A stretch of DNA of 64,000 bases from Scenedesmus sp. PABB004 (Eukaryota): assembly GCA_014905635.1 (NCBI GenBank), contig JABVCE010000007.1:620001-684000 (forward strand). Direction: 5' to 3'. The position numbers and the translations under genes are program-made. Positions 8,566 through 58,500 of the stretch are shown in pieces (position 1 is the first letter of the stretch; each line of letters opens with the position of its first letter). The notes under the pieces are model-generated. The model saw only the letters and a program-made list of their open reading frames with translations, was not told the DNA's origin and made no database searches.

Positions 8566-9122
8566 TGCACAGCGGCGTGCGGGCTGCTGAGCGAGAGCGG
8601 GGGCGCCGCGCCGCGGAGCTGCAGCGCTGCCGCCGGTGCCGCTGCGAGCGGCCTGTGTTCGGTGGCGCTCGTCGCCGTGCTTCTCGCCTGAGCAGCTCGC
8701 GGCGGACAGGGTGGGCCAGGCGGCTGTTCAGCTGAGCAGGCGGGGCTGCTCGGCGGTTCAGGGCGGCACGCCGCGACCGTCTGCACAATCCGGTGCGCGG
8801 CGCTTGGGCACCAGATCGTGCACGGTCGGAGGCACGCAGCGGTCACCCGCGCCCGGCGAGAGCCGCCCGCGATGCAGCGCTCGTCGATCGCGCGCCAGTA
8901 CGCGCGCTGCGGGCAGCCCAAGCCGGCGCGCGCCGCGATGGATGGCAGCCTGTGAGGCGGGTGTTGTGTGGTGCGTGCGTCGCGGCCGGTCGGATCGCGC
9001 ACTCCGCCGCCGGGCGCGTTCCGGAAGATTCATGCCGCCGCCCCGCCCCGCCCCGCCCCGCGCCGCGCCGCGCCGCCCCTCCGTCAGGCTCCACGGCCTC
9101 GGTTGAGGGCGCGCTGGGCGCC

Positions 9123-9389
9123 ATGGAGCCGGAGCCGCCGCCGCCGCCGCCGCCGATCGGCGGCGGGCAGCAGGAGGCGCAGCAGCGCGCCGGCGCGCCG
9201 GCTCAGGCCGATCCCGCGCACCCCGTGGCGCCCGCCGGCCTTTTCGCGCTGCCGGTGCTGAACTGGGGCGCGCCGCAGCCCGCGCCGCAGCCGGCGGCGC
9301 CAGCGCAGCCGCGCCCGCCGCCGGCTGGCGCCGGCTGGCGCCGCGCGTATCGCGGGCCGGCAGAGGACGACTGGCTGCAGCCGCCGGAG

Positions 9390-9439
<50 letters not shown>

Positions 9440-12400
9440 GCAGCGCGCGGGCGCGGCGCCGCGGCACCCGCCCGCCGGCGGCGGCTTCGCGTACCAGGAG
9501 GTGGTGCGCGGGCAGGCGCGCCAGGACCTGCCGGGGCACGACTGTGCCCAGTGCCGTGACTTCTACGACGCCCTCTCCACCTGGGGCGCGCCGGCGCCGG
9601 GCACCACGATGCTGCTCCCGTGCGCCCACGCGCTGGCCCCGGCCGCGCTGCAGGCCGCGTCGCGGCACCGCGCCAAGCACGCGCCTCCCGAGACCCCGCC
9701 GGGGTTTTGGGACATCGGGTTCGCGCTCGGCGGTGGCGGCAGGGGCAGCCCCGGGCCCAGCAGCAGCAGCAGCGGCAGCGGGAGCGTCAGCGGGAGCGGC
9801 CGGCGCGGCGGCAGCCCGGCGCCGCGGCCGGACGACGCGCCGGTGCCGGCGCCGGCGCCGCCGCCGCCCGTGGCGCCGCAGCAGCGGCAGCCGCAGCCGG
9901 CCGCGCCGCGCGGCGCGCCGGCGCCGGCGCCGCCGCCGCCGCCGCCGCCGCCGGAGGAGCTCATGGCGCCCGCTGGCACGTGCAGCGGCGCCCAGCTCCG
10001 CGCGCTGCAGTATGAGCTGTGGCGCTGCGGGTTAGAGCTCGTGCACGGCCGCGCCGACGGCCTGTGCGCCTACTACCTCATCGCGGCGGCCATGCTGGGG
10101 CTGCTGCACACGGCGCTCCCGCGGCAGCCGCACGAGGACGTGCGCACCTTTGACGCAGCCACGATGCCCGTGCTGGAGGAGCAGGCGCTCCAGCTGCGGG
10201 CGCTGACGGCGCGGCGCGTGCTGGAGCTGGGGCTGAACGACGCGATGCACGACAGCGGCGTGCCGTGGCGCGAGGTGTTTGTCGACGCGGGTGGCGAGGC
10301 CGCCGTGCGTGCGCTCGCGCAGAGGGTGGCCGGGGGGGGGGGGGGGGGGCTACCCCGGCGAGGCGGAGCTGCGGGCCCTGTGCATGCTCCCCCGCCTGGG
10401 GGTCTCCCTGGGCCCGACGTTCAGCCCCGACACGCTGCTCATCGCCCTCCGGACGCTGGGCGACACGCTGCAGGCGAGCGAGGGCAACCTGCTCGTGCTG
10501 TTTGCGCTGCCGGCCGCCGCGGCGCCGGCGTTTGCGCCCCTGTTCGGGGCGCAAAACCCGCTGCCGCTCAACCACTGGGCGGCGGTGGTGCGGGCGCGCA
10601 GGCCGCCGCCGCGCAGCCCGCCGGCGCTGCTGGGGCAGCCGCGCGAGCCGCCGCGCGGCGCGCCGGCGGTGCTGCAGCAGGCGCGCGAGCCGCCGCGCGG
10701 CGCGCCTGCGCAGCAGCGGCTGCAGGAGGCGGCGCCGCGCGCCGCGGAGCTCGCCGCGGACAGCAGCGACGAGGAGGGCGGCCCGGCGGCGGGCCAGCCG
10801 CTGCAGCCGCTGCAGCCGCTGCAGCCGCAGCAGCTCGGGCGCAAGGAGCGCCGCGGCAAGGGCAACGGCGCCGCGGCGCCGCTGGGCACCAGCAACAGCG
10901 ACAGCAGCAGCAGCAGCCGCCGCCGCCGCCGCGCCGCGACCGCCGCCGCCATTGACGCGGCGTGGGAGAAGCCGGTGGAGCGCGGCGCGGAGCTCGACGC
11001 GTCCAAGGCGCGCGCCGAGGCGGCCGGGCCGTCCGACGAGGACGTGCGGCGCTCCAAGCAGCGCGCGAGCTACGACGCCAAGCACGCGCGCCGCGGCGGC
11101 GGCGGCACGAGCCGCGCGCGCAGCGACAGCGCCGGCGGCAGCGCCGGCAGCAGCACCGGCGGCGGCACGAGCGGCGCGCGCAGCGGCGGGGGCACCCCGG
11201 GCCCCCGCCCGCGCGCGCATCGACCCCGCCGAGTGCGCGGCGCAGCCCGTGGAAGGCGCCGGCTGGGAGGCGCTGCGCCGCCACGCGCAGGCCCGCGGCG
11301 AGGCCGCCCGCGCGGCGGCGATGGCGGCGGTGCTCTCGGCGCCCGCCGCCAGCGTCGGCTCGTCCGCCGGCAGCGCCGCGGCCAGCAGCGACGAGGAGGA
11401 GGGCGGCCCGGCGGCGAAGCGCGCGCGCGGCGCCGACGCGGCGCAGCGCCGCAGCCGCAGCCGCGGCCGCGGCCGCGGCCGCGGCCGCGGCCGTGCGCGC
11501 TCGCGCGGCAGCGCCAAGGCCGCGACGCGCGGCGGCCGCACGCCCTCGCGCGGCGGCGGCGCGCGCGCTCGCGCGGCGGCGCGGCGGCGGCGCCGCGCGG
11601 CCGCCGCAAGCGCTCGCGCGGCGCCGACGAGGCGTCGGGGCGTGCCTCGCCCGCGCGCGGTGCAGCGGCGGCCGAGGCGGGCGACAAGGCAGGGCGGCAG
11701 CAGCAGCAGGCGCTGCCGCGGCACTTCGCCAAGCGCAGGAAACAACAGACCGAGCAGGCCAAAAAGGCAGCGGCTGGCTCTGGCATGCGTGAGTGTGCCC
11801 GCCGCGCGGCGCGCCGCCGGGGCGCCGGGCCGCTGTCTCGGCACCCTGCGCCGCCGCCGCCCCGCGCCCTGCCCGCGCCCCCCTCACCTGCCCTCGCCCG
11901 CCCGCCCGCCCGCCCGCCTCAGGCGTGCGCGTCTGCGCGCTGCGCGGCGCCGTGCGCAAGCCAGAGGTGGTGCCTTTCCTTGAGGCGCTCGTGCGCGCCT
12001 ACAGCCTGGTGGGCATCCTGGGCCGCGACGCGCACCACGTGGCGCTCGTGTATGGGGCCAGGTGCGCGCGCGCGCGGGTGGGCGTGCCCGCGCGCTGCGC
12101 GCGGCGCTTTGCGCCCCCCTCCTCCTCGGCGCCGCCCGCCGAGTCGCGCCGCCCGTCCGCCCGCCCGCCCGCCCGCTGCGCAGCCGGCTGTACGGGCTCG
12201 ACACGCGTCAGCCGCCGCCGCAGCCGGCGGCGCAGGAGCAGGAGCAGGGCCAGCAGCAGCCGCAGCAGGCCCAGCAGCCGGCGCCGCCGCCGCCCGCGTG
12301 CGCCTGCTACCTGCAGGCCGCGTGCGGCGGCGCGCACCTCGTGTACGACCTGATCGACTTTTTCAGCCAGGGCAACTGGCGGCGCGTCGGCGGCGGCCTG

Positions 12401-14220
12401 TCCAGCGACCTGCGCCATGCCCTGGAGCAGGCCTGCGGCGCCAACGAGCTGCAGCGCGTGCCCCTGCCGGCCTGGGTGACGGGCAACCTTCACCACTGCC
12501 TGCTCGCCCCGCTCGCGGAGCTGTACAACACCAACATGCAGCTCCACCTCGCTGACGGCCAGCGCCTGGAGAAGGCGCTCGACGCCGCCGCCCTGCAGGC
12601 GTGGTTTGCCGCGGGCTGCACCGGCACGCCCAGCCGCGCCACGCGCGACTGCCTCATCGCCGGCGGCGCGGCGCTGCTGTACAGCGCGTCGCCGCTGCTC
12701 TGGGAGCGCCAGGGCGTGCTGCAGCCGGGCGAGGGCGTGGTGCCCGCGGCGGCGGGCGACGGCCAGGACGCCGGCCGGCTGCGGCTGGCCATGGCGATGA
12801 TGCGCGACATGCTCGCGCAGATGCGCCTGCACCTGGAGCAGCCCTACCCGGCGGCGGCGGACGGCCAGGCGCGCGCGCCCGCGGCCGGCGCGGCGCGCAC
12901 GCGCCAGGCGACAGGGGCGCAGGCGACGCCCAGCCTGCAACGCTGGGAGTCGGACGAGGCGGCCGGCAAGCACGGCCGCGTGCTCGACTGGGCGCGGAGC
13001 GGCATGCCGCGCGCGCCGGACGCGGGCGCGCAGGCAGGGGGCGCGCCGCTCGTGCCGCAGCCGCCGGAGCCGCTGGCGCACGGCGCGGGCGCGGCGGCGC
13101 GGCAGCAGCACGACGCGGCCTACGACGCCTGGCGCGCGGCGCTGGCCCAGCAGCTCGAGGGCCTGGCGTACCGGGAGGGCGACGCCGACGCCATGGCGCG
13201 CCGCGTCGCGCGCGACTTTGTCGTCATGCGCGGCCAGCAGCACATGTTTGCTGCCTGCGCGCCGCGGCTGGCGGACTCGCTGGCAGCCCAGCAGGGCGCA
13301 GCGGCGCGGCCGGCGCTGGAGGCGATGCTGCGCCGCGCCGCGTCGCTCGGGGCGGCCCCGGAGCAGCCGTCGGCCGGCGCGCTCGCGGCGGCCGTCGCGT
13401 TGCTGGCAGAGGCGCTGGACGGCAGCAGCGGGGGCAGCGGCAGCGGCAGCAGCCGCAGCAGCCGCAGCAGCCGCGGCCAGCGTCCGCCGGCGCCCCGCAA
13501 GCTGCTGGACGCCAGCGCCCAGGAGCCGCGCCTGCGCGAGCTGCAGCGGGCGCGCGAGCTGGGCAAGCTCGAGGCGGCGGTGCAGCGCCTGCGCGCCGCC
13601 GTGGATGCCAGCGAGGCGGCCGTGCGTCTGCGCAAGGACCCCCTCAAGGCCCTGCAGCTGGAGGTCGCCGGCGCTGCGGTCCCTGATCGCCACGCCCGCA
13701 ACCGGCTGCGCCGCCTGCAGCGCAAGGACGCGCACGCGGCGGCGCTCCGGCGCCGGCTGGCCGCCGCGGAGGCGCGGCTGCTCCGCGCCCGGGGGCAAGG
13801 CGCCGCGCCGGGCGCGGCGCCGGGCCAGGGGCCGGGCGCGGCGCTGCCGGCCGCGGCCGCGGAGCGGCTGCGGCTGGCGCTGGCCGCGCTGACCGCCGCC
13901 GGCGACGCGACGGTGGGGGCCGACCTCGCAGCCGTGGAGGCGGAGTGGCAGGCTGCCATGGCGCAGCACCACGAGCGCGACGCCGCGCTTGTGCACCACC
14001 AGCGGCGCCTCGCGCGGCCGCACGGCGCGGCGGCGGCGCCCGACGCGGACGCGGCCCGCCGCGCGGTGGACGCCGCCGGCGCCGCGCGTGACCAGGGCAC
14101 GCGGCTGCTGGGCGACTGCGGCGCCCGACTGGCGGCCGCGCGCGGCCTCCTGGCGGCCGCGCGCGGCCACCTGGCCGCCGCAGCGGCCGCGCAGGGTCGC
14201 GCTGCGCCGGCGCCGCCGGC

Positions 14221-14271
<51 letters not shown>

Positions 14272-16090
14272 GCCCGCGCCGCGCACGCCCGAGGTGGCGG
14301 CGGCGGCTGTCGCGGCGCTGCGTCGCGAGGTCTCGACCGGCTTGCGCCGTGCGGTGTGCGCGACGCTCGAGGCGGTGCTGGCTGCGGCGACCGCCGCCGG
14401 CGCGGCGCCGCCGGCGGCGGCGCCGGCGCCGCCCGGCGACCGCAGCGGCGGCGCGCAGCCGCCGCAGCGCGCCGGCGGCGCGGGGCAGCACCCCGACGCG
14501 CTCGTCGCGGTCGCGGGCGCGTGCAAGGTGATGCGCGCCCTGCGCTCGCGGCACGCCGCGCGCGTGGCGCTGCCCAAGCGGCGCGCCTTCACGCTGGCGC
14601 CGGTGCCCAAGTACGGCACCCAGCACCTGCACCTGTCCACCTCGGGCATGCAGGCGCTGGACGCAGCGCTGCGCGCGCGCCAGGCCAAGGCGCCCGCTGC
14701 GGGCCAGCCGGCAGGCCAGCCGCCGCCGCCACCGCCGACCCAGGAGGGCGGGGGCTACGATCCCGTTTGGGATGCATATTTTCATTTTGGCCGGCGCCCC
14801 GGGCGTGCGCGCGGCGTGCTGCACGCCAACACGCGCTTTGCGGGCTCGGTGACGTTTGATCTGGCGGCGCTGCACGTGCGCGTGCGCGTTGAGGGCGCCG
14901 CCGACCCCGCCCCGCGCCGCGGCCAGCAGTCGCGCGCCGCCAAGGCGGCGCAGCGCGCGGCAGAGCACCGCGCGGGCGTGGAGGCAGCGCAGCGGCTGCT
15001 CTGCGACGCGCTGGCGCCGCATGGCGTGGCCGACGAGGCGGCGCTCGTCGCGCTGCCGCTCGACCCGTGCGAGCTGCGCGGCGTGGAGGGCCTGCCGCCG
15101 GGGCACGCGCTGCGCGGCGCGGCCGCGGCCGTGCACGCGGGCGTGCGCATCGTTGGAATCGACCCGGGCCGGGCGCGCATGATATGCGCCGCGACTTGGC
15201 GGCAGGGCCCGGGCTGCATGCGCGTCGCGCACCGCCGCATCGCGCAGCGGCGCTGCCCCAACGCGCCGCGCAGCCGCGACGACCCCGGCCGCCGCTACGA
15301 GGCGGAGAGCATCATCCGAATAAAGACCGCCGCGCACCGCGACTCGCGCGGGATCGAGCGGCACCGCCTATGGCAGCAGGGGCGGCCGGGGCGGCCGGGG
15401 CGGTACGACCGCCGCCCGCCCGCCGGCGGCGACTGCGTGCATGCCTGCCTGAACCGCGTGCCTGCCTACTCGGGCACGAGCGTCGCCGCCGCCGGGGCGT
15501 GGCGCAACGGCCGGGTGCATCATGTGTTGGACAATGCATTCGCATATAGCTTGCTTGCGTGCCGTGCAGAGTGTGCGTGGCGGCTGCGGAAGCACGGGCT
15601 GAAGCAGCGCGCGCTGCATGCGGCCATTCAGTTGACCGCGTACGGCCGGGTCTTTGTGCGCGGGCGCGTCCGGCCGCACGCGCGCCTGCCCGCCGACCTG
15701 CCCGCGGTGGTGCTGGGCATCGGGGACGCCAGCCTGGGCATGGGGGGCTGCATCTCGGGGCCGGGGCCGCCGCGGCAGGCGCTGCTGGCGCTGCTGCGCA
15801 CTTATTATGCGCGCCGGCGCGTCGCCGCGGTGCTCATGGACGAGCACCGCACGAGCGTCACCTGCTCGGTGTGCGCGTCGCGCATGGAGAAGCTGCGGGG
15901 CATTTACGGTCTGATGCAGTGCCCCGGGTGCACGGTCGTCGCGCCGCGCGACGACAACGCGGCGCGCAACATCTGCGCGCTGACGCTGCACGAGTTGCTG
16001 CCCGGCGGCCGAGGCACGGCCGGCGGCGCGCGCCTCGCCGGCGCGTTCCGGCAGGCGGCCGCTGCCGCCGCGGTGGGACCCCCGGCGTGA
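9123..16090 (+). CDS. Giant Fanzor1 (TnpB-family RuvC RNA-guided endonuclease) with N-terminal CtIP/Sae2-like and OTU-like domains. Model: 9123-11788, 11923-12061, 12184-16090, with a frameshift at the G18 run 10332-10349
   Basis: RuvC-I VGIDPG (Asp codon 15161), VLGIGD, RuvC-II MDEHRTS (Glu 15842), CSVC...CPGC zinc finger, RuvC-III RDDNAARNI (Asp 15950). Fanzor1-like upstream motifs FTLAP, VWDAYFHF, FAGSVTFD. Two phase-compatible GT-AG introns at 11789-11922 and 12062-12183. The Fanzor call is strong; fusion to the 5' domains is less certain. Confidence 0.85.
9486..9722 (+). other. CtIP/Ctp1/Sae2/COM1 C-terminal domain within the Fanzor locus
   Basis: FAYQEVVRGQARQDLPGHDCAQCRDFY...SRHRAKHAPPETPPGFWDIGF carries the EVVR, CxxC, RHR and TPxxFW motifs of the CtIP C-terminus. 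Confidence 0.88.
10020..10590 (+). other. OTU-like cysteine protease domain, split by the G18 frameshift
   Basis: LELVHGRADGLCAYYLIA (DGxC, Cys codon 10065), LQLRAL, then after the G-run YPGEAELRAL and LNHWAAVV (His codon 10573). Motif order matches OTU-family proteases. Confidence 0.6.
14222..14269 (+). repeat. (CAG)16 poly-Gln tract in the Fanzor insertion region
   Basis: Perfect CAG run. A second, imperfect poly-Q tract lies at ~9396-9443. Confidence 0.95.
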
Positions 16091-16690
16091 GCGGCGTGTG
16101 CGGTGCGCTGCGCTCTCCGTCCTGGGCAGGACGTTTAAAGGCCTCTTGCTGTTGTGTGTTGCCAGGTTAGGTCAGGCGTGTGCGCGTGTGTTTCTCGCAT
16201 GGCCACCCGTTCCGGGTGGGGGGCACCCCCTCTCGCGGGGGCACCGACCGACGGGCCGGTCCCAAACCGTCATGCCTCACGCCGCTGTGGCCTGTTTCAG
16301 GCGGCCGGCGTTGATAGGCTGCCCATGGTCGGTGTTGGCGGCGGCGGCGCGCGCGCGCGGCGGTGGCAGCGCCGCGCACGCGCGCCGCGCGCCCGCGGCG
16401 CCGGGACGCCCCCCGGGGCGCCCCGGCAGCCCCCATCCCCCAGCCGCCGGTGTTGAGACCACCGGCCGGCGCTCCCACGGCGGTTGCGAGCCGGCGGGGA
16501 GCACGCCCACTGGGCGGGTTGAAGCCGCTGCACCCCGAGTGCCACCGCCCGCCCCTGGCCGCCCACGCACCACCCAGCGCCGATCAGGAGCACCCACTAG
16601 GCGGGCAGGCGTGGCGGGCCGCGGGTGAAACCGCTGGCAGCAGCACAGGCCTCGCGCTCGCGGACCAGGCCTCACACTCCCGCTTTAATT
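16091..16690 (+). ncRNA. Candidate Fanzor omegaRNA / structured right-end region (boundaries unknown)
   Basis: Directly 3' of the Fanzor stop, where Fanzor/TnpB guide scaffolds are encoded. Many stems, e.g. CCACCCG/CGGGTGG 16203-16219, CACCGACC 16242-16249 with GGTCGGTG 16327-16334, and GCCGGTG/CACCGGC 16446-16466. Confidence 0.55.
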
Positions 16691-16874
16691 GCCCTCGACG
16701 AACCACCGGCCCCCGACACGCTCCTGCGCCGCGGCACCGCATCCGGGAGCGCTGCAGCCGCCGGCGGGCGCGCGGCGGTTGTGCTCGCAGCAGCAGCGGC
16801 GGCGCCGCTCTCGCCTCTCCGGCAAGGCGCAGGTGCCAGCCAGCGCGCGGCGCGGCGGCGGCACGGTCGCCGCG

Positions 16875-18457
16875 ATGCAGGCCTCCAAGCGCAAGGCCGC
16901 GTCGGCGCGGCGCAAGGAGCGCAAGGAGGCGGAGGAGCTGAAGCAGCTGCTGCTGCTCGTGGGCGACTTCCTCGTCACCGGCATCTGGGTGCTGATCTCC
17001 TCGGGCTTCTCCGAGGCGCGGCGCCGCCGCCGCCGCGCGGCCCGCGAGGCCCGCGCGCCGCCGGCGCCGGCGCCGGGGCCGCGGCCGCACGCGGCGGCCG
17101 CCGAGCGCCGCGCCGCGCCGCGCCGCGCCGCGCCGCGCAGGCCGCCGCGATGCTCGCCGGCATCAGCGGGCTCGGCGAGTTTGCGCTCGCAGTCGCGATG
17201 ACCTGCGCCGCGCTGCTGATGATGGGACCGATGTGCGACATGTTTGGCGGTGCGCCGCGGCCCTGGGCGGCGGCGACGCGGCCGGCGGCGTGGCCGGGGG
17301 GCCGCAGCGGCGCGGCGGCGCGCGGGTTGAACATGCGCCGGCGCGGCGCGCAGGCGCGATGTTCAACCCGATCCACAACGCCGCGTTTGTGTGCGCCGGC
17401 AAGGGCACCGTGCGCATGAACGCGGTGCGCATGGCGGCCCAGATCGGCGGCGCGCTCGCGGGGAGCTACACCGCGGTCGCCATCACGCCCGACTGGATGA
17501 AGCAGTGAGGCGGCGGCGGCGGCGGCGCGCACACAGCGCGCTGGCGCCCGCCCGCGGCGGCGCCCGCCGACGGCCGCGCCGCGCGCGCCCGCCGCAGGCA
17601 CTTTCCCAAGCTGCCGGGTGGGCTGAAGGAGGGCGTGGCGCTGCAGGCCGGCGTCGCGGTGGAGATGGTCTGCGGCCTCGTCATCAACCTGGTCGTGCTG
17701 CACGCCATGGGTGAGAGGAGCGGCGGCGGCGGCCGCGCGGCGCGTGTAGCACGCTGGAGCCTGGCCGGCCCGCGGCAGCGGCCTGCGGTCGAGCGCGCCG
17801 CCGCGCCGCAGACACCAAGAACCGCATCGTCGCCTACTGGGCGCCGATCGTGGCGACCGTCGCGCTGGTGCGGCGCCGCGCCGCGGCGGGGCGCCCGCGC
17901 CCGCGCCCGCGCCCTGCGCCCGGCGCCCTCGCGCCGACCCGCGCCCGGCGCCGGCCCCGCGGCGCGCAGATCGTGGGCGGGTCGTACTACACCGGCCCCT
18001 CCATGAACCCGGCCATCGTGAGCCCAGCCAGCCGCGCCGCCAGCGCCGCGGCGCCGGCCCCGGCGGCGCCGTGCGCTGCGCGCCGCCGCCGCCCCGGGCC
18101 TCCTCTGCCCAGCGCCGTGCGCCGCGCGCGCCGCCGCGGCGCACACGCGCAGGCCTTTGGCTGGTACCATCACTACGGCGGCCACCCCTGGGTGGAGCAG
18201 ATCGCCGTCTACTGGGCGGCGCCCTTTGCCGGAGTGCGCGCCGCGGGCGCGGCCGGCGCCGCGCGCCGGCGCGGGCGCGCCGCGCCGCGGCCACGCCGAC
18301 GCCCGCGCCGCCCGCCGACGGCCACGGCGCCGCGCCTGCGCAGGCGATGCTGGGAGGGCTGCTGTACCGCGCGGTCGCGGGCCGCGCCGAGCCGCCCCGC
18401 GCGCCGCGCAGCCTGCCGGCGGGGCTGAAGGCCGCCGCGGGCGCCAAGGAGGAGTGA
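16875..18457 (+). CDS. Aquaporin/MIP-family channel, SIP-like, multi-exon
   Basis: LVGDFLVTGIWV, variant first loop FNPIHN, MAAQIGGALAG, VEMVCGLV, second loop GPSMNPAI, VYWAAPFAG, and a basic C-terminus ending AKEE*. Confidence 0.85.
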
Positions 18458-55524: not shown

Positions 55525-58500
55525 ATGGTCAAGGCCTACCTGCGCTACGAGCAGGCGGGGGCCTGGGGCGTGATTGCCAGCGGCGCCAACGTCGCGTTCG
55601 ACGCGGGCGGCAAGCACCTGCTCACGGGCACGCTCGAGAGCATCGCGCTGTGGAACCTGCGCCAGGGCGCCCAGGTGCGGCGCGGCGCGGTCCGGGAGGC
55701 GAGAGCGGGGGCCGGGGCAGCTCCCGGCACTGCGCGGCGGCGCGGCCGGGCGGCGCGGCCGGCAGCAGCGCCGGCGGCCGGCGGCGGGCGCGTCACCCGG
55801 CGGCTCGCGCGCAGGTGGCCACGCTGTCGCCGGAGCTGGCCAGCAGCAGCACCGCGCCGCGCGCGGCCGCGGAGGTCACGCGCATCGCCGTCGCGCCGGG
55901 CGGGCACCCGCTCGCGGCCGGCTACTCCGACGGCACGGTGCGCCGCGCTGTTGCTGCGCGCGGCGGCGGCGGCGGCGGCAGCAGCAGTCGTGTTATTCGC
56001 AGCGACAGCACGCACGCACACGGCAGTGCCGCCGGCCGGCAGCGGGCGCCCGCGAGCGCGCCGCGCGCCGCGCCGCGCCGCCGCGCGCCGCCGCAGGTGC
56101 GGCTCTGGGACGTGCCCTCGCGCACGTGCCTCGTCACGCTGTCGGGCCACACCGGCGCGGTCACGGCGCTCGCGTTCAGCGCCGGCGGCGGCCTGCTCGC
56201 GTCGGGCAGCGCCGACACGACCGCGATTCTGTGGGACGTCGTCGGCGAGGCGGGGCTGGTGCGGCTCAAGGGCCACCGCGACGCGATCACCGACCTGGTG
56301 CGCGGCGGCGGGGGCTTGGGGGGGGGGCAGGCGGGGACGCCACAGCGGCGGCGCCCTGCCACCGTCGCTGCCGCTGCCGCCGACGCCGCCGCCGCCGGCC
56401 GCGGGCGCAGGCGCTGCTGCACGGTGGCGCGAAGCTCGTGACGGGCAGCAAGGACGGCATGGTCAAGGTGTGGGACGCGGCGCTGCAGCACTGCTGCCAG
56501 ACGGTCATCGGCTTCAAAGGCGAGGTCTGGGCGCTCGCGGTCGACCCCGCGGAGCGCCGCCTCGTCGCGGGCTGCGTCGACAGCGAGCTGCGCGTCTTCG
56601 CGATCCGCTCGCCCGAGGGCGCCCGCGGCGCGGGCGGTGCCGGCGCCGGCGGCGACGGCGGCGCCGGCAGCGACAGCGACGCCGACGAGGGCGACGCGGA
56701 GCGGCGGCTCGCCGCGCTCGTGGCCGCGGCGGCCGCCGGCGGCGCCGGCGCCGCGGCCGGCGCCGGCGCCGGCGCGGCGCCGCGGCGGCACGAGCTGCTC
56801 GTGCCGATGGGCAGCGTGCGGCGGCTGGGCCAGGAGCGCGTGGGCGCGATACACTTCAGCGCGAGCGGCGACCTGCTGGGCGTCATGGGCGCGGGCAAGA
56901 GCCTGGAGATCTTCAAGTGAGCGCTGCTGCCGCCGCGCCGCAGGGCGCCGCCGCGCAGAGCGCCGCCATGCAGAGCGTTGCGGCCCCGCAGCCGCCGCCG
57001 CCGCCGACGCCGCGCTCGCGCCGCTGCCCGCCCCAGGGTGCGGGGCGAGGCGGAGGCGCTGCGCAAGATGAAGCGGCGGCGGCGGCGCAAGAAGGAGAAG
57101 GCTCACAAGGCGGCCAAGGGCGGCGACGGCGACGCGCCGGGTGCGCCGCCGCGCCGCCGCCGCTGCTGCGGCGCCGCCGCTGCACCGCCGCGCCGCGCCG
57201 CGAGGCCCGCCCCCCGCCCCCCGCCCCGCGCCGGCGCGCAGGCGGGCAGCGCGACGGCGACGACGACGACGCCGGCGACGACGCGGGCGCCGACGCGGCG
57301 ACCGCGGGCGACGAGCTCGGCAGCCTGCTGGTGGTCACGCTGCGGCACAAGGCCCGCAGCTTTGCGTTCAACGCCGCCGGCCACAGGGGCTGCCTCGGCC
57401 AGGTCGCGGTCGGGCTGGCCAACAACAGCGTGGAGGTGCGCGCACCGCGCGCCCGCGCGCGCGGCAGCGCTCACGCTGGCGCGCCGGCGCCGCGTGCTGT
57501 TGTCGGTTCTGACCGCCGCCGCTGCTGCTGCCGCGTCTGGTCGCCGCTGCTGCTGCCGCCGCGTCTGGCCGCCGCAGCTCATCGACATAAAGGACGGCAG
57601 CTACGCCGCGGCCGGCAAGCTCGACCTGCCCGGCCACCGCAGCGACGTGCGCTGCCTCGCGCTCTCCTCGGACGACGCGCAGCTGCTGTCCGGCAGCAAC
57701 GCCGGCTGCAAGCTCTGGGACGCCGGCAGCGGCGCGTGCCTGGGCAGCATAGACACGGGCTACGCCCTCTGCTGCGTCTTTGCGCCGGGCAACCGCCACG
57801 CCCTCGTCGGCACCAAGGCGCGCGCGCGGCGGCGGCGGCGCGGCGGCGGCGGCGGCGGCGGCGGCGCGGCGACGCCGCGGCCCGCGGCCCGCGGGCCGCG
57901 GCCACGCCGCGCGCGCGCGCGCCCGGGCCGCCGCGCGCGCCTGGCCCTGGCCGCCGCCCGACCCCCGCGCCGCCGCCGCGGGCTCGCGTGTGCGCGCGCG
58001 CGCGCCCTTGCAGGAGGGCGCCATCCAGCTCGTCGACGTGGGCGCCGCGGCGGTGATCCACAGCGAGGCCGCGCACGGCGGCGCGGTGTGGTCGCTCGCG
58101 CTGCTGCCGGACAAGTCGGGCTTTGTGAGCGGCTCCGCCGACAAGACGATCAAGTTCTGGACCTGGGCGGTCGCCGGCGGCGACGACGACGACGAGCAGG
58201 CGGCGGCGGCGGCGGCGGCCAAGAAGAAGAAGAAAAAGAAGGGCGGCGACGGCGGCGAGGGCGGCGGCGAGGGCGGCGCCGCCGCGCCGGGCGCGCGGCA
58301 GCTGCGCTTCAGCGAGACGCGGTCGCTCGAGATGGCCGACGACGTGCTCTGCGTGCGCGTCTCGCCCGACGGCCGCCTGCTCGCGGCGGCGCTGCTCGAC
58401 GCGACGATCAAGGTGTACTACGCGGACAGGTGCGGACCGCGGGCGCGGCGCGGCGCGGCGGGGCGGCCCCTGCCGCCTGCGCGCGCGCCGCCCGCCCGCG

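Follow-up and report, generated by a model that had tools for sequence, protein, structure and literature searches.

A divergent Fanzor gene with a constrained nuclease core in the GC-rich genome of Scenedesmus sp. PABB004

Introduction

Fanzors are, to our knowledge, the only RNA-guided DNA endonucleases of eukaryotes, and they are under development as compact genome editors. They have been known in green algae since 2013, and 3,655 were catalogued in 2023. We examined a stretch of 64,000 nucleotides from Scenedesmus sp. PABB004 (GenBank assembly GCA_014905635.1; contig JABVCE010000007.1, positions 620,001 to 684,000 of the forward strand), here called the window. In it, a first-pass annotation made from the letters had read a Fanzor1 nuclease core with all RuvC catalytic residues and the zinc finger intact, and had proposed a catalytically competent, possibly new genome-editing enzyme. 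Is the open reading frame (ORF) that holds this core a gene at all, does it belong to the Fanzors, and is the locus a working nuclease, a gene put to use by the host, or a relic? We found that the ORF belongs to a real Fanzor gene under constraint, which encodes at least ∼1,350 residues, with a large low-complexity stretch ahead of the nuclease core. The kind of system is known; what is new is a divergent member of its family.

Family membership of the nuclease core

The gene belongs to the Fanzor family of the TnpB superfamily, with the catalytic and zinc-binding residues all in place. The stop-to-stop ORF spans positions 11984 to 16090 of the forward strand (1,368 codons), and all four motifs of the core lie in its frame (Table 1). 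The positions first given for them, with the RuvC-I Asp at 15161, the Glu at 15842, the RuvC-III Asp at 15950, and CSVC/CPGC in between, proved exact. Over residues 1274 to 1330 the translation matched the Pfam family PF07282 (Cas12f1-like TNB) with an E value of 2.9e-08 and 34.2 bits, against a cutoff of 26.3. NCBIfam TnpB models matched the TNB stretch weakly and far under their own cutoffs (IS607_TnpB; E value, 6.7e-05). The family motif published in 2013 (Bao and Jurka; given in PMC3627910 as D-X(125,275)-[TS][TS]-X-X-C4-X(5,50)-RD) is found in full, as D1060, a gap of 229 residues, T1290-S1291, V-T, CSVC...CPGC, 5 residues, and R1322-D1323.

What sets Fanzors apart is the placement of the RuvC-II glutamate. 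As described by Jiang et al. (2023; PMC10530073), they have lost the canonical Glu, which became Gly or Pro, and use instead a Glu some 45 residues from that position (E467 in ApmFNuc); according to the same source, the D324A and E467A changes of ApmFNuc abolish cleavage. Here the strand at the canonical position reads GIGDAS, with no Glu, and the HMMER alignment puts E1287 on E467 of ApmFz2, the four Cys on one another, and D1323 on the RD of ApmFz2. Judged from this alignment, the core carries the relocated glutamate typical of Fanzors, in agreement with what the first-pass annotation had said of the Glu just before the zinc finger (PMC10530073). E1287 is invariant in all 12 rows of one alignment of relatives (A1), the four zinc-ribbon Cys are nearly invariant in a second alignment (A2), and the R and D of RuvC-III are nearly invariant in both. 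G1245 and G1247 sit 42 and 40 residues before E1287, and we infer that one or the other corresponds to the canonical TnpB Glu; the neighboring D1248 is Asn in most relatives. There is also a Gly of the Fanzor1 type, G1252, which hardly varies among the rows of A1 and precedes E1287 by 35 residues; SPu-1-1p has a conserved G500 and E536, 36 apart, in the description of PMC3627910. This Gly/Glu pair does not discriminate Fanzor1, because the same Glu is also found in Fanzor2.

The relatives of the protein, which are unnamed metagenome proteins, are distant. When 1.84 billion cluster representatives were scanned with HMMER, 24 proteins reached an E value of ≤0.001, and the best of them (P0002) had an E value of 2.3e-20 and 34% identity over query residues 235 to 522; none of the representatives scanned was ≥50% identical. 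Alignment to relatives remains collinear all the way from the WED strand, which reads RRAFTLAP here and RRFCLCPE in relatives, to the C-terminal tail, AFRQA here and TFRQA or VFRQ in relatives, and it requires neither a frameshift nor a stop. The conservation of AFRQA shortly before the stop codon supports the position of that stop. When a profile of 12 relatives was compared with the PDB, it matched ApmFz2 (9b0l; E value, 1.5e-14), GtFz1 (9cer; 4.7e-07, over profile positions 132 to 387, from RuvC-I to RuvC-III), SpuFz1 (8gkh; 7.3e-07), and PpFz1 (9cf0; 7.9e-07), and the DPG of the profile fell on the GIDPG of ApmFz2, that is, on D324. Single-sequence PDB searches with two of the relatives (P0011 and P0002) reached no Fanzor1 structure, and a word-indexed protein search with the 549-residue core found nothing at an E value of ≤0.001. 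A metagenome scan yielded 65 loci, none of them close (best, 51% identity over 60 residues), and tblastn of the spliced model against these loci aligned the C-terminal part only (query residues 1171 to 1318).

The structure predicted for the 549-residue core agrees with this placement. The AlphaFold model, built from 24 sequences, had a mean predicted local distance difference test score (pLDDT) of 56.5, and most 10-residue blocks from residue 331 on scored 59 to 90, except in a loop at residues 431 to 444. SpuFz1 was the top Foldseek match (E value, 9.7e-06), and all 13 matches at an E value of ≤0.001 were Fanzor, Cas12f, Cas12o, or Cas-phi proteins. VIA-align gave Z-scores of 10 to 11 over model residues 220 to 549, alike for Cas12f, PpFz, TnpB, ApmFz2, and SpuFz. 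As modeled, the core has a RuvC fold with an inserted zinc ribbon.

Coding evidence and selection

The G+C content is 72 to 82% in every 2-kb bin of the window. ORFs of more than 1,000 codons occur across it in several frames and on both strands, and an antisense ORF of 1,122 codons overlies the same DNA as the Fanzor ORF. The lack of stop codons over 3.9 kb, on which the first-pass annotation had drawn, is true of the frame but weak as coding evidence, because of this base composition and the antisense ORF. Codon periodicity, and not ORF length, separates genes from noise in the window. Measured in 150-nucleotide windows, the three-base periodicity of the Fanzor frame is unbroken from ∼12150 to ∼15975 and has the pattern of the forward strand, with G+C lowest at codon position 2 (0.38 to 0.80) and at ∼0.76 to 1.00 at position 3. 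Past ∼15975 to 16050 the periodicity is gone, and G+C there drops to ∼0.62 to 0.74. Together with the collinear homology and the excess of synonymous changes described below, this periodicity identifies the Fanzor frame as coding.

Close relatives of the locus came from environmental sequences. Three studies of freshwater and sludge, with four metagenome runs among them, contained short contigs 91 to 99% identical to the locus, and these contigs tile positions 9458 to 17038, which take in the gene as well as its flanks, at similar divergence. Eight sequencing runs were listed, all with small shares (0.05 to 0.15) and none of them from RNA, which does not bear on expression. One contig of 896 nucleotides is collinear with positions 15371 to 16270 and ∼96% identical to them. 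Among the 32 of its 35 differences that were listed, 26 are coding, and these comprise 16 synonymous and 10 nonsynonymous changes (on 199.7 and 517.3 sites, respectively). For these listed differences, synonymous divergence (pS) was ∼0.080, nonsynonymous divergence (pN) was ∼0.019, and pN/pS was ∼0.24 (binomial P, 3.4e-04). The nonsynonymous changes are mostly conservative ones in the RuvC/zinc-ribbon core (e.g., V to I, M to V, and S to A), and no listed change touches D1060, E1287, D1323, or the four Cys. Listed indels measure -9, +6, and -3 nucleotides within the ORF and 1 to 3 nucleotides past the stop, where most are not multiples of 3; two more indels and 98 more substitutions exist beyond those listed. 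The nuclease core is under purifying selection.

Joints in the metagenome contigs that skip kilobases (e.g., from 10525 to 17508) were considered as a possible empty site. Their sides are only 20 to 25 nucleotides long, and we rejected them as repeat or foreign matches.

Gene structure

The long ORF has its first Met at residue 185, and the start must therefore lie upstream of this ORF. A candidate start is the ATG at 11785, from which two putative introns lead into the main ORF (Table 1); the joins 11788-11923 and 12061-12184 both preserve the frame. The 3.9-kb exon of the first-pass annotation corresponds to the last exon, 12184 to 16090 (3,907 nucleotides), if the acceptor is the one proposed at 12183/12184. 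The exon between the two introns encodes a strand-plus-helix N-terminal segment (VRVCALRG..., FLEALVRAYSLVG...), which by eye resembles the N termini of two relatives of 615 to 632 residues (P0011 and P0018). The frame of the 11785 ATG stays open further upstream through KRRK and RRKRSR, which resemble the basic N termini of relatives, and a basic extension of the protein, in frame with the candidate ATG, is possible.

Both putative Fanzor introns are of the GT..AG type and appear host-like. Intron 2 has the same donor and acceptor words as an intron in the WDR3/Utp12 host gene of the window, and a similar length. A (CCCG)n-CAG acceptor tract was considered as a general mark of introns and was rejected, as it had only eight matches in the window.

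The WED strand is reached only after more than 800 residues. In the low-complexity stretch, residues 271 to 840 are 29% Ala, 12% Arg, 10% Leu, and 9% Gln, a poly-Gln run occupies 14222 to 14269, and coding periodicity is maintained throughout; the stretch matched no Pfam family. In the ESM Atlas, the N-terminal helical region matched generic helical-repeat clusters only, with low recognition.

TABLE 1 Features of the Fanzor locus and two host features (positions in the window)
Feature	Positions	Strand	Remarks
SAE2/CtIP C-terminal domain	9075-9728	+	PF08573, E value 1.1e-13; ∼2 kb upstream of the Fanzor exons, same strand
Candidate start ATG plus one base	11785-11788	+	Before GTGAGT donor; ATG frame fits the splice model; inferred
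Putative intron 1	11789-11922	+	134 nt; GTGAGT ... C-rich tract ... CAG; no periodicity
Putative exon	11923-12061	+	139 nt; periodic in another frame than the main ORF (11925-12075)
Putative intron 2	12062-12183	+	122 nt; GTGCGC ... GCGCAG
Last exon	12184-16090	+	3,907 nt including TGA; helical N-terminal region, low-complexity stretch, WED, RuvC, zinc ribbon
Low-complexity stretch	12800-14560 (approximate)	+	∼580 residues, Ala/Arg/Leu/Gln-rich, coiled-coil-like; between N-terminal helical region and WED strand
WED-like region	14579-15154	+	RRAFTLAP up to RuvC-I; aligned with P0002, P0008, and P0010 (RRFCLCPE..., FAGxxxTDGVxxxVH); low model confidence
RuvC-I GIDPG	15155-15169	+	Asp D1060, codon 15161-15163
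VVLGIGDAS strand	15716-15733	+	Position of the canonical TnpB RuvC-II glutamate, absent here; predicted beta strand (model residues 422-428)
DEHRTS	15839-15856	+	Relocated RuvC-II E1287, codon 15842-15844; includes TS of the family motif
C4 zinc ribbon CSVC...CPGC (TNB/NUC domain)	15863-15931	+	CSVC 15863-15874, CPGC 15920-15931
RuvC-III RDDNAARNI	15947-15973	+	First Asp D1323, codon 15950-15952
C-terminal tail AFRQA	16043-16057	+	Aligned with TFRQA, VFRQ, and AFKRE of relatives
3' flank	16091-16350	+	Lower G+C (∼0.62-0.80 by codon phase); expected site of the Fanzor guide (omega) RNA
Host intron, WDR3/Utp12 gene	56298-56410	+	113 nt; GTGCGC...GCGCAG; inferred from beta-propeller domain continuity across two frames

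Genomic neighborhood

All neighbors recognized by Pfam are of host type. They include an alpha/beta hydrolase, an RRM protein, a methyltransferase, the SAE2/CtIP C terminus, an amine oxidase, and a PIN protein, as well as Ariadne/IBR, trypsin-like protease, DnaJ-TPR, NKAP, WDR3/Utp12, and Cys-rich FGFR repeat proteins.

Between the SAE2/CtIP domain and the Fanzor exons, coding-like periodicity runs on, and no border between genes can be discerned from it. At a run of ∼21 G (10329 to 10350), the coding periodicity switches frame. The run is 9 nucleotides shorter in a metagenome relative, and the frame change is therefore probably no simple assembly error. The segment at 9960 to 10600 on the forward strand has what we take to be the look of an OTU-type cysteine protease (DGLC ... 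NHW). We did not retain this identity, as the segment contains no Pfam domain and the ESM Atlas gave for 9960 to 10328 a weak lead (0.85) in which 11% of the cluster members were OTU proteins. Downstream of the Fanzor gene, the next gene begins near 16870 (MQASKRK...; region 16870 to 18430, forward strand). A later frame in this region has an NPA-type motif (GPSMNPAIV), presumably as in aquaporin/MIP channels.

Interpretation

We hold it fairly probable that the locus is an apparently intact Fanzor gene of the RNA-guided, DNA-cutting kind, carried with host-like introns in the very GC-rich nuclear genome of a eukaryote. By analogy with SpuFz1 and ApmFz2, the protein would associate with an RNA made from the 3' region of its own gene, the resulting ribonucleoprotein (RNP) would recognize a short motif adjacent to the matching target, and both strands of the double-stranded DNA would be cut in a single RuvC site. 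The gene may ride, or may once have ridden, in a non-autonomous transposon. We put the chances of RNA-guided cutting in the present day at about even.

A number of observations weigh against this reading. The 5' end and the start codon were deduced from sequence alone, with no unique start; the low-complexity stretch of ∼580 residues has no counterpart among the relatives found; and confidence in the structural model is low before residue ∼220. Within the window, we found no second copy (tblastn and a profile search of 571 six-frame ORFs), no transposase among the 36 periodic ORFs scanned against Pfam, and no terminal inverted repeats that stand out among 738 GC-rich repeat pairs. Some of the environmental relatives are damaged. 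In two runs there is a second form in which 15948 to 16056 (109 nucleotides, holding RDDNAARNI) is replaced by 13 nucleotides, and one contig skips 15646 to 15701 (56 nucleotides), which is a frameshift. Broken or nuclease-dead relatives, whether alleles or paralogues, therefore exist. Fanzor guide RNAs derive from the 3' end of the gene, and here the window gave no Rfam match, with the tRNA scan empty too. The region from 15980 to 16330 folds no better than shuffled sequences (z, 0.06), and four of five 150-nucleotide subwindows were at shuffle level (z, 0.10, -0.11, 0.07, and -0.54), with no excess of folding over 15980 to 16349. Lastly, CrFNuc-1, the sole green-alga Fanzor1c that PMC10530073 presents as tested in print, formed an RNP with no detectable cleavage in vitro according to that source.

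Some further features of these relatives and of the 3' flank were observed. By our reading of the letters, the form with the RuvC-III deletion apparently continues in frame to the same stop. The subwindow 16300 to 16449, which begins 210 nucleotides beyond the stop and lies in the gap between the Fanzor gene and its downstream neighbor, has GC palindromes that fold better than all 200 shuffles (z, -2.88). In the 896-nucleotide contig, the first 180 nucleotides past the stop differ by 6 substitutions and by 4 short indels, numbers too small to be taken as a sign of constraint, and none of the 65 metagenome loci was close enough for guide-RNA covariation. TGTAA, the poly(A) signal of green algae, occurs twice in the window, neither time near the Fanzor gene.

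An unlikely alternative is a host-resident (domesticated) Fanzor, that is, a single-copy gene that lost its transposon, gained introns and the low-complexity/coiled-coil region, and was kept for a cellular role, RNA-guided or not. It would fit the lack of a transposase, terminal inverted repeats, or a second copy in 64 kb, the ordinary host genes that make up all Pfam-recognized neighbors, the host-like introns, and the pN/pS of ∼0.24. The contigs of 91 to 99% identity, tiling the gene and its flanks at similar divergence, likewise look as they would for orthologous loci. However, the copy count covers the 64-kb window only, no contig links the gene with its flanks, and the deleted and frameshifted relatives run contrary to an indispensable gene. 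As far as PMC3627910 documents them, many Fanzors reside in non-autonomous elements without a transposase, and transposon-borne Fanzors are also under purifying selection (CMe-1A). It is rather improbable that the locus is, more specifically, a spliced single-copy host Fanzor without transposon ends, under purifying selection and with the ∼580-residue region ahead of its core, that, lying directly downstream of a same-strand end-resection gene of the CtIP/Sae2 type, was recruited as an RNA-guided (or formerly RNA-guided) nuclease to a role such as DNA repair or genome defense.

Equally improbable, in our estimate, is an inactive relic in which the motifs are intact, the guide RNA and the element ends are lost, and a gene with no RNA-guided activity drifts to decay. 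In its favor, our searches turned up neither element ends nor a 3' RNA with structure or conservation; relatives with a RuvC-III deletion and a frameshift exist; a low-complexity stretch of this length could interfere with the REC lobe; and CrFNuc-1 showed no cleavage in the account of PMC10530073. Decay accords less well with the excess of synonymous changes (P, 3.4e-04), with listed ORF indels that are in frame only, with the retention of every catalytic and zinc-binding residue, and with the lack of any stop or frameshift against homologues over ∼500 residues. Finally, the notion of a chance ORF with chance motifs in GC-rich DNA, which long ORFs in several frames and on both strands might suggest (e.g., the 1,122 codons in antisense), is refuted by the PF07282 match above its cutoff, the 24 homologues at an E value of ≤0.001 (best, 2.3e-20) with their collinear alignment, the fold matches in Foldseek and VIA-align, the strand- and frame-specific periodicity, and the synonymous excess.

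Read as an apparently intact Fanzor gene, the locus adds a deeply divergent lineage in which the catalytic residues are kept and purifying selection is measurable. Its main biological interest lies in whether the gene still travels with a transposon or now belongs to the host. The protein may be catalytically competent, as the first-pass annotation had suggested from the motifs. The accompanying suggestion of a new genome-editing enzyme is weakened by the size of at least ∼1,350 residues, ∼580 of them of low complexity, and by the lack of cleavage with CrFNuc-1; its size, its extreme GC content, the length of the low-complexity stretch, and the fact that no guide RNA was found make its value as an editor doubtful.

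Comparison with known systems

Among prokaryotic systems, ISDra2 TnpB (8h1j; Z-score, 10.5) and Cas12f (7wju; Z-score, 11.0) share the RuvC fold and the zinc ribbon with the protein described here. They differ from it in having the canonical RuvC-II Glu on the strand that reads VVLGIGDAS here, in their size of ∼400 residues, and in an omega RNA with a pseudoknot.

ApmFz2 (ApmFNuc; mimivirus L79, a Fanzor2; PDB 9B0L) was the best sequence match among solved structures, with an E value of 0.017 for the sequence alone and 1.5e-14 with the profile, and the good alignment is limited to the last 50 to 90 residues. It is a viral, intron-free protein of 520 residues and of the IS607 type, whereas the REC and RuvC inserts appear far larger here.

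The Fanzor1 proteins of Chlamydomonas reinhardtii (CRe-1, 2, and 3; CrFNuc; Fanzor1c) are likewise multi-exon and come from a GC-rich genome of the green-alga type. An RNA derived from the 3' end and RNP formation are reported for them (PMC3627910 and PMC10530073). In the published descriptions, they occur as six full copies and hundreds of truncated loci, a multicopy state not found in our window, and lie inside Helitron2 elements. The marks described for these elements (hairpins, asymmetric terminal repeats, and target-site duplications) were not found here.

SpuFz1 (a Fanzor1 from Spizellomyces punctatus; PDB 8GKH) has the same order of parts as the present protein, namely, WED, RuvC-I, a helical insert, the relocated Glu before the C4 ribbon, and RuvC-III. 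In SpuFz1 the REC and RuvC domains are enlarged relative to TnpB (PMC10432273), and this enlargement may be shared by the protein here. The spacing between the catalytic residues is different. From Asp to Glu there are 227 residues here, compared with 158 in SpuFz1 (D383 and E541) and 143 in ApmFz2 (D324 and E467), and from Glu to the last Asp there are 36 here, compared with 65 in SpuFz1 (D606). SpuFz1 has 638 residues and is encoded by a single-ORF element of 2.1 kb with 30-nucleotide inverted repeats, present at 42 loci (Saito et al. 2023; PMC10432273), in contrast to at least ∼1,350 residues, introns, no recognizable repeats, and one copy in the window here. Sequence identity in the structural alignments was only 16 to 18%.

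Fanzor1 is a clade (families 1a to 1d) marked by enlarged REC and RuvC inserts, with REC2 helices, relative to TnpB and Fanzor2, and the model predicts long helices at residues 348 to 401. The Z-scores of 10 to 11 tie Fanzor1, Fanzor2, TnpB, and Cas12f, and the sequence scores favor the C terminus of ApmFz2. From the first-pass claim of an intact Fanzor1 core, a Fanzor-family core with its Asp, Glu, and Asp and its C4 ribbon stands firmly, and its assignment to the Fanzor1 clade stands as a leaning, with SpuFz1 first in Foldseek and the Z-scores tied. We lean towards Fanzor1 because of the spacing of 227 residues, the more than 800 residues before the WED strand, and the first rank of SpuFz1 in Foldseek, and we regard membership of the Fanzor1 clade as probable.

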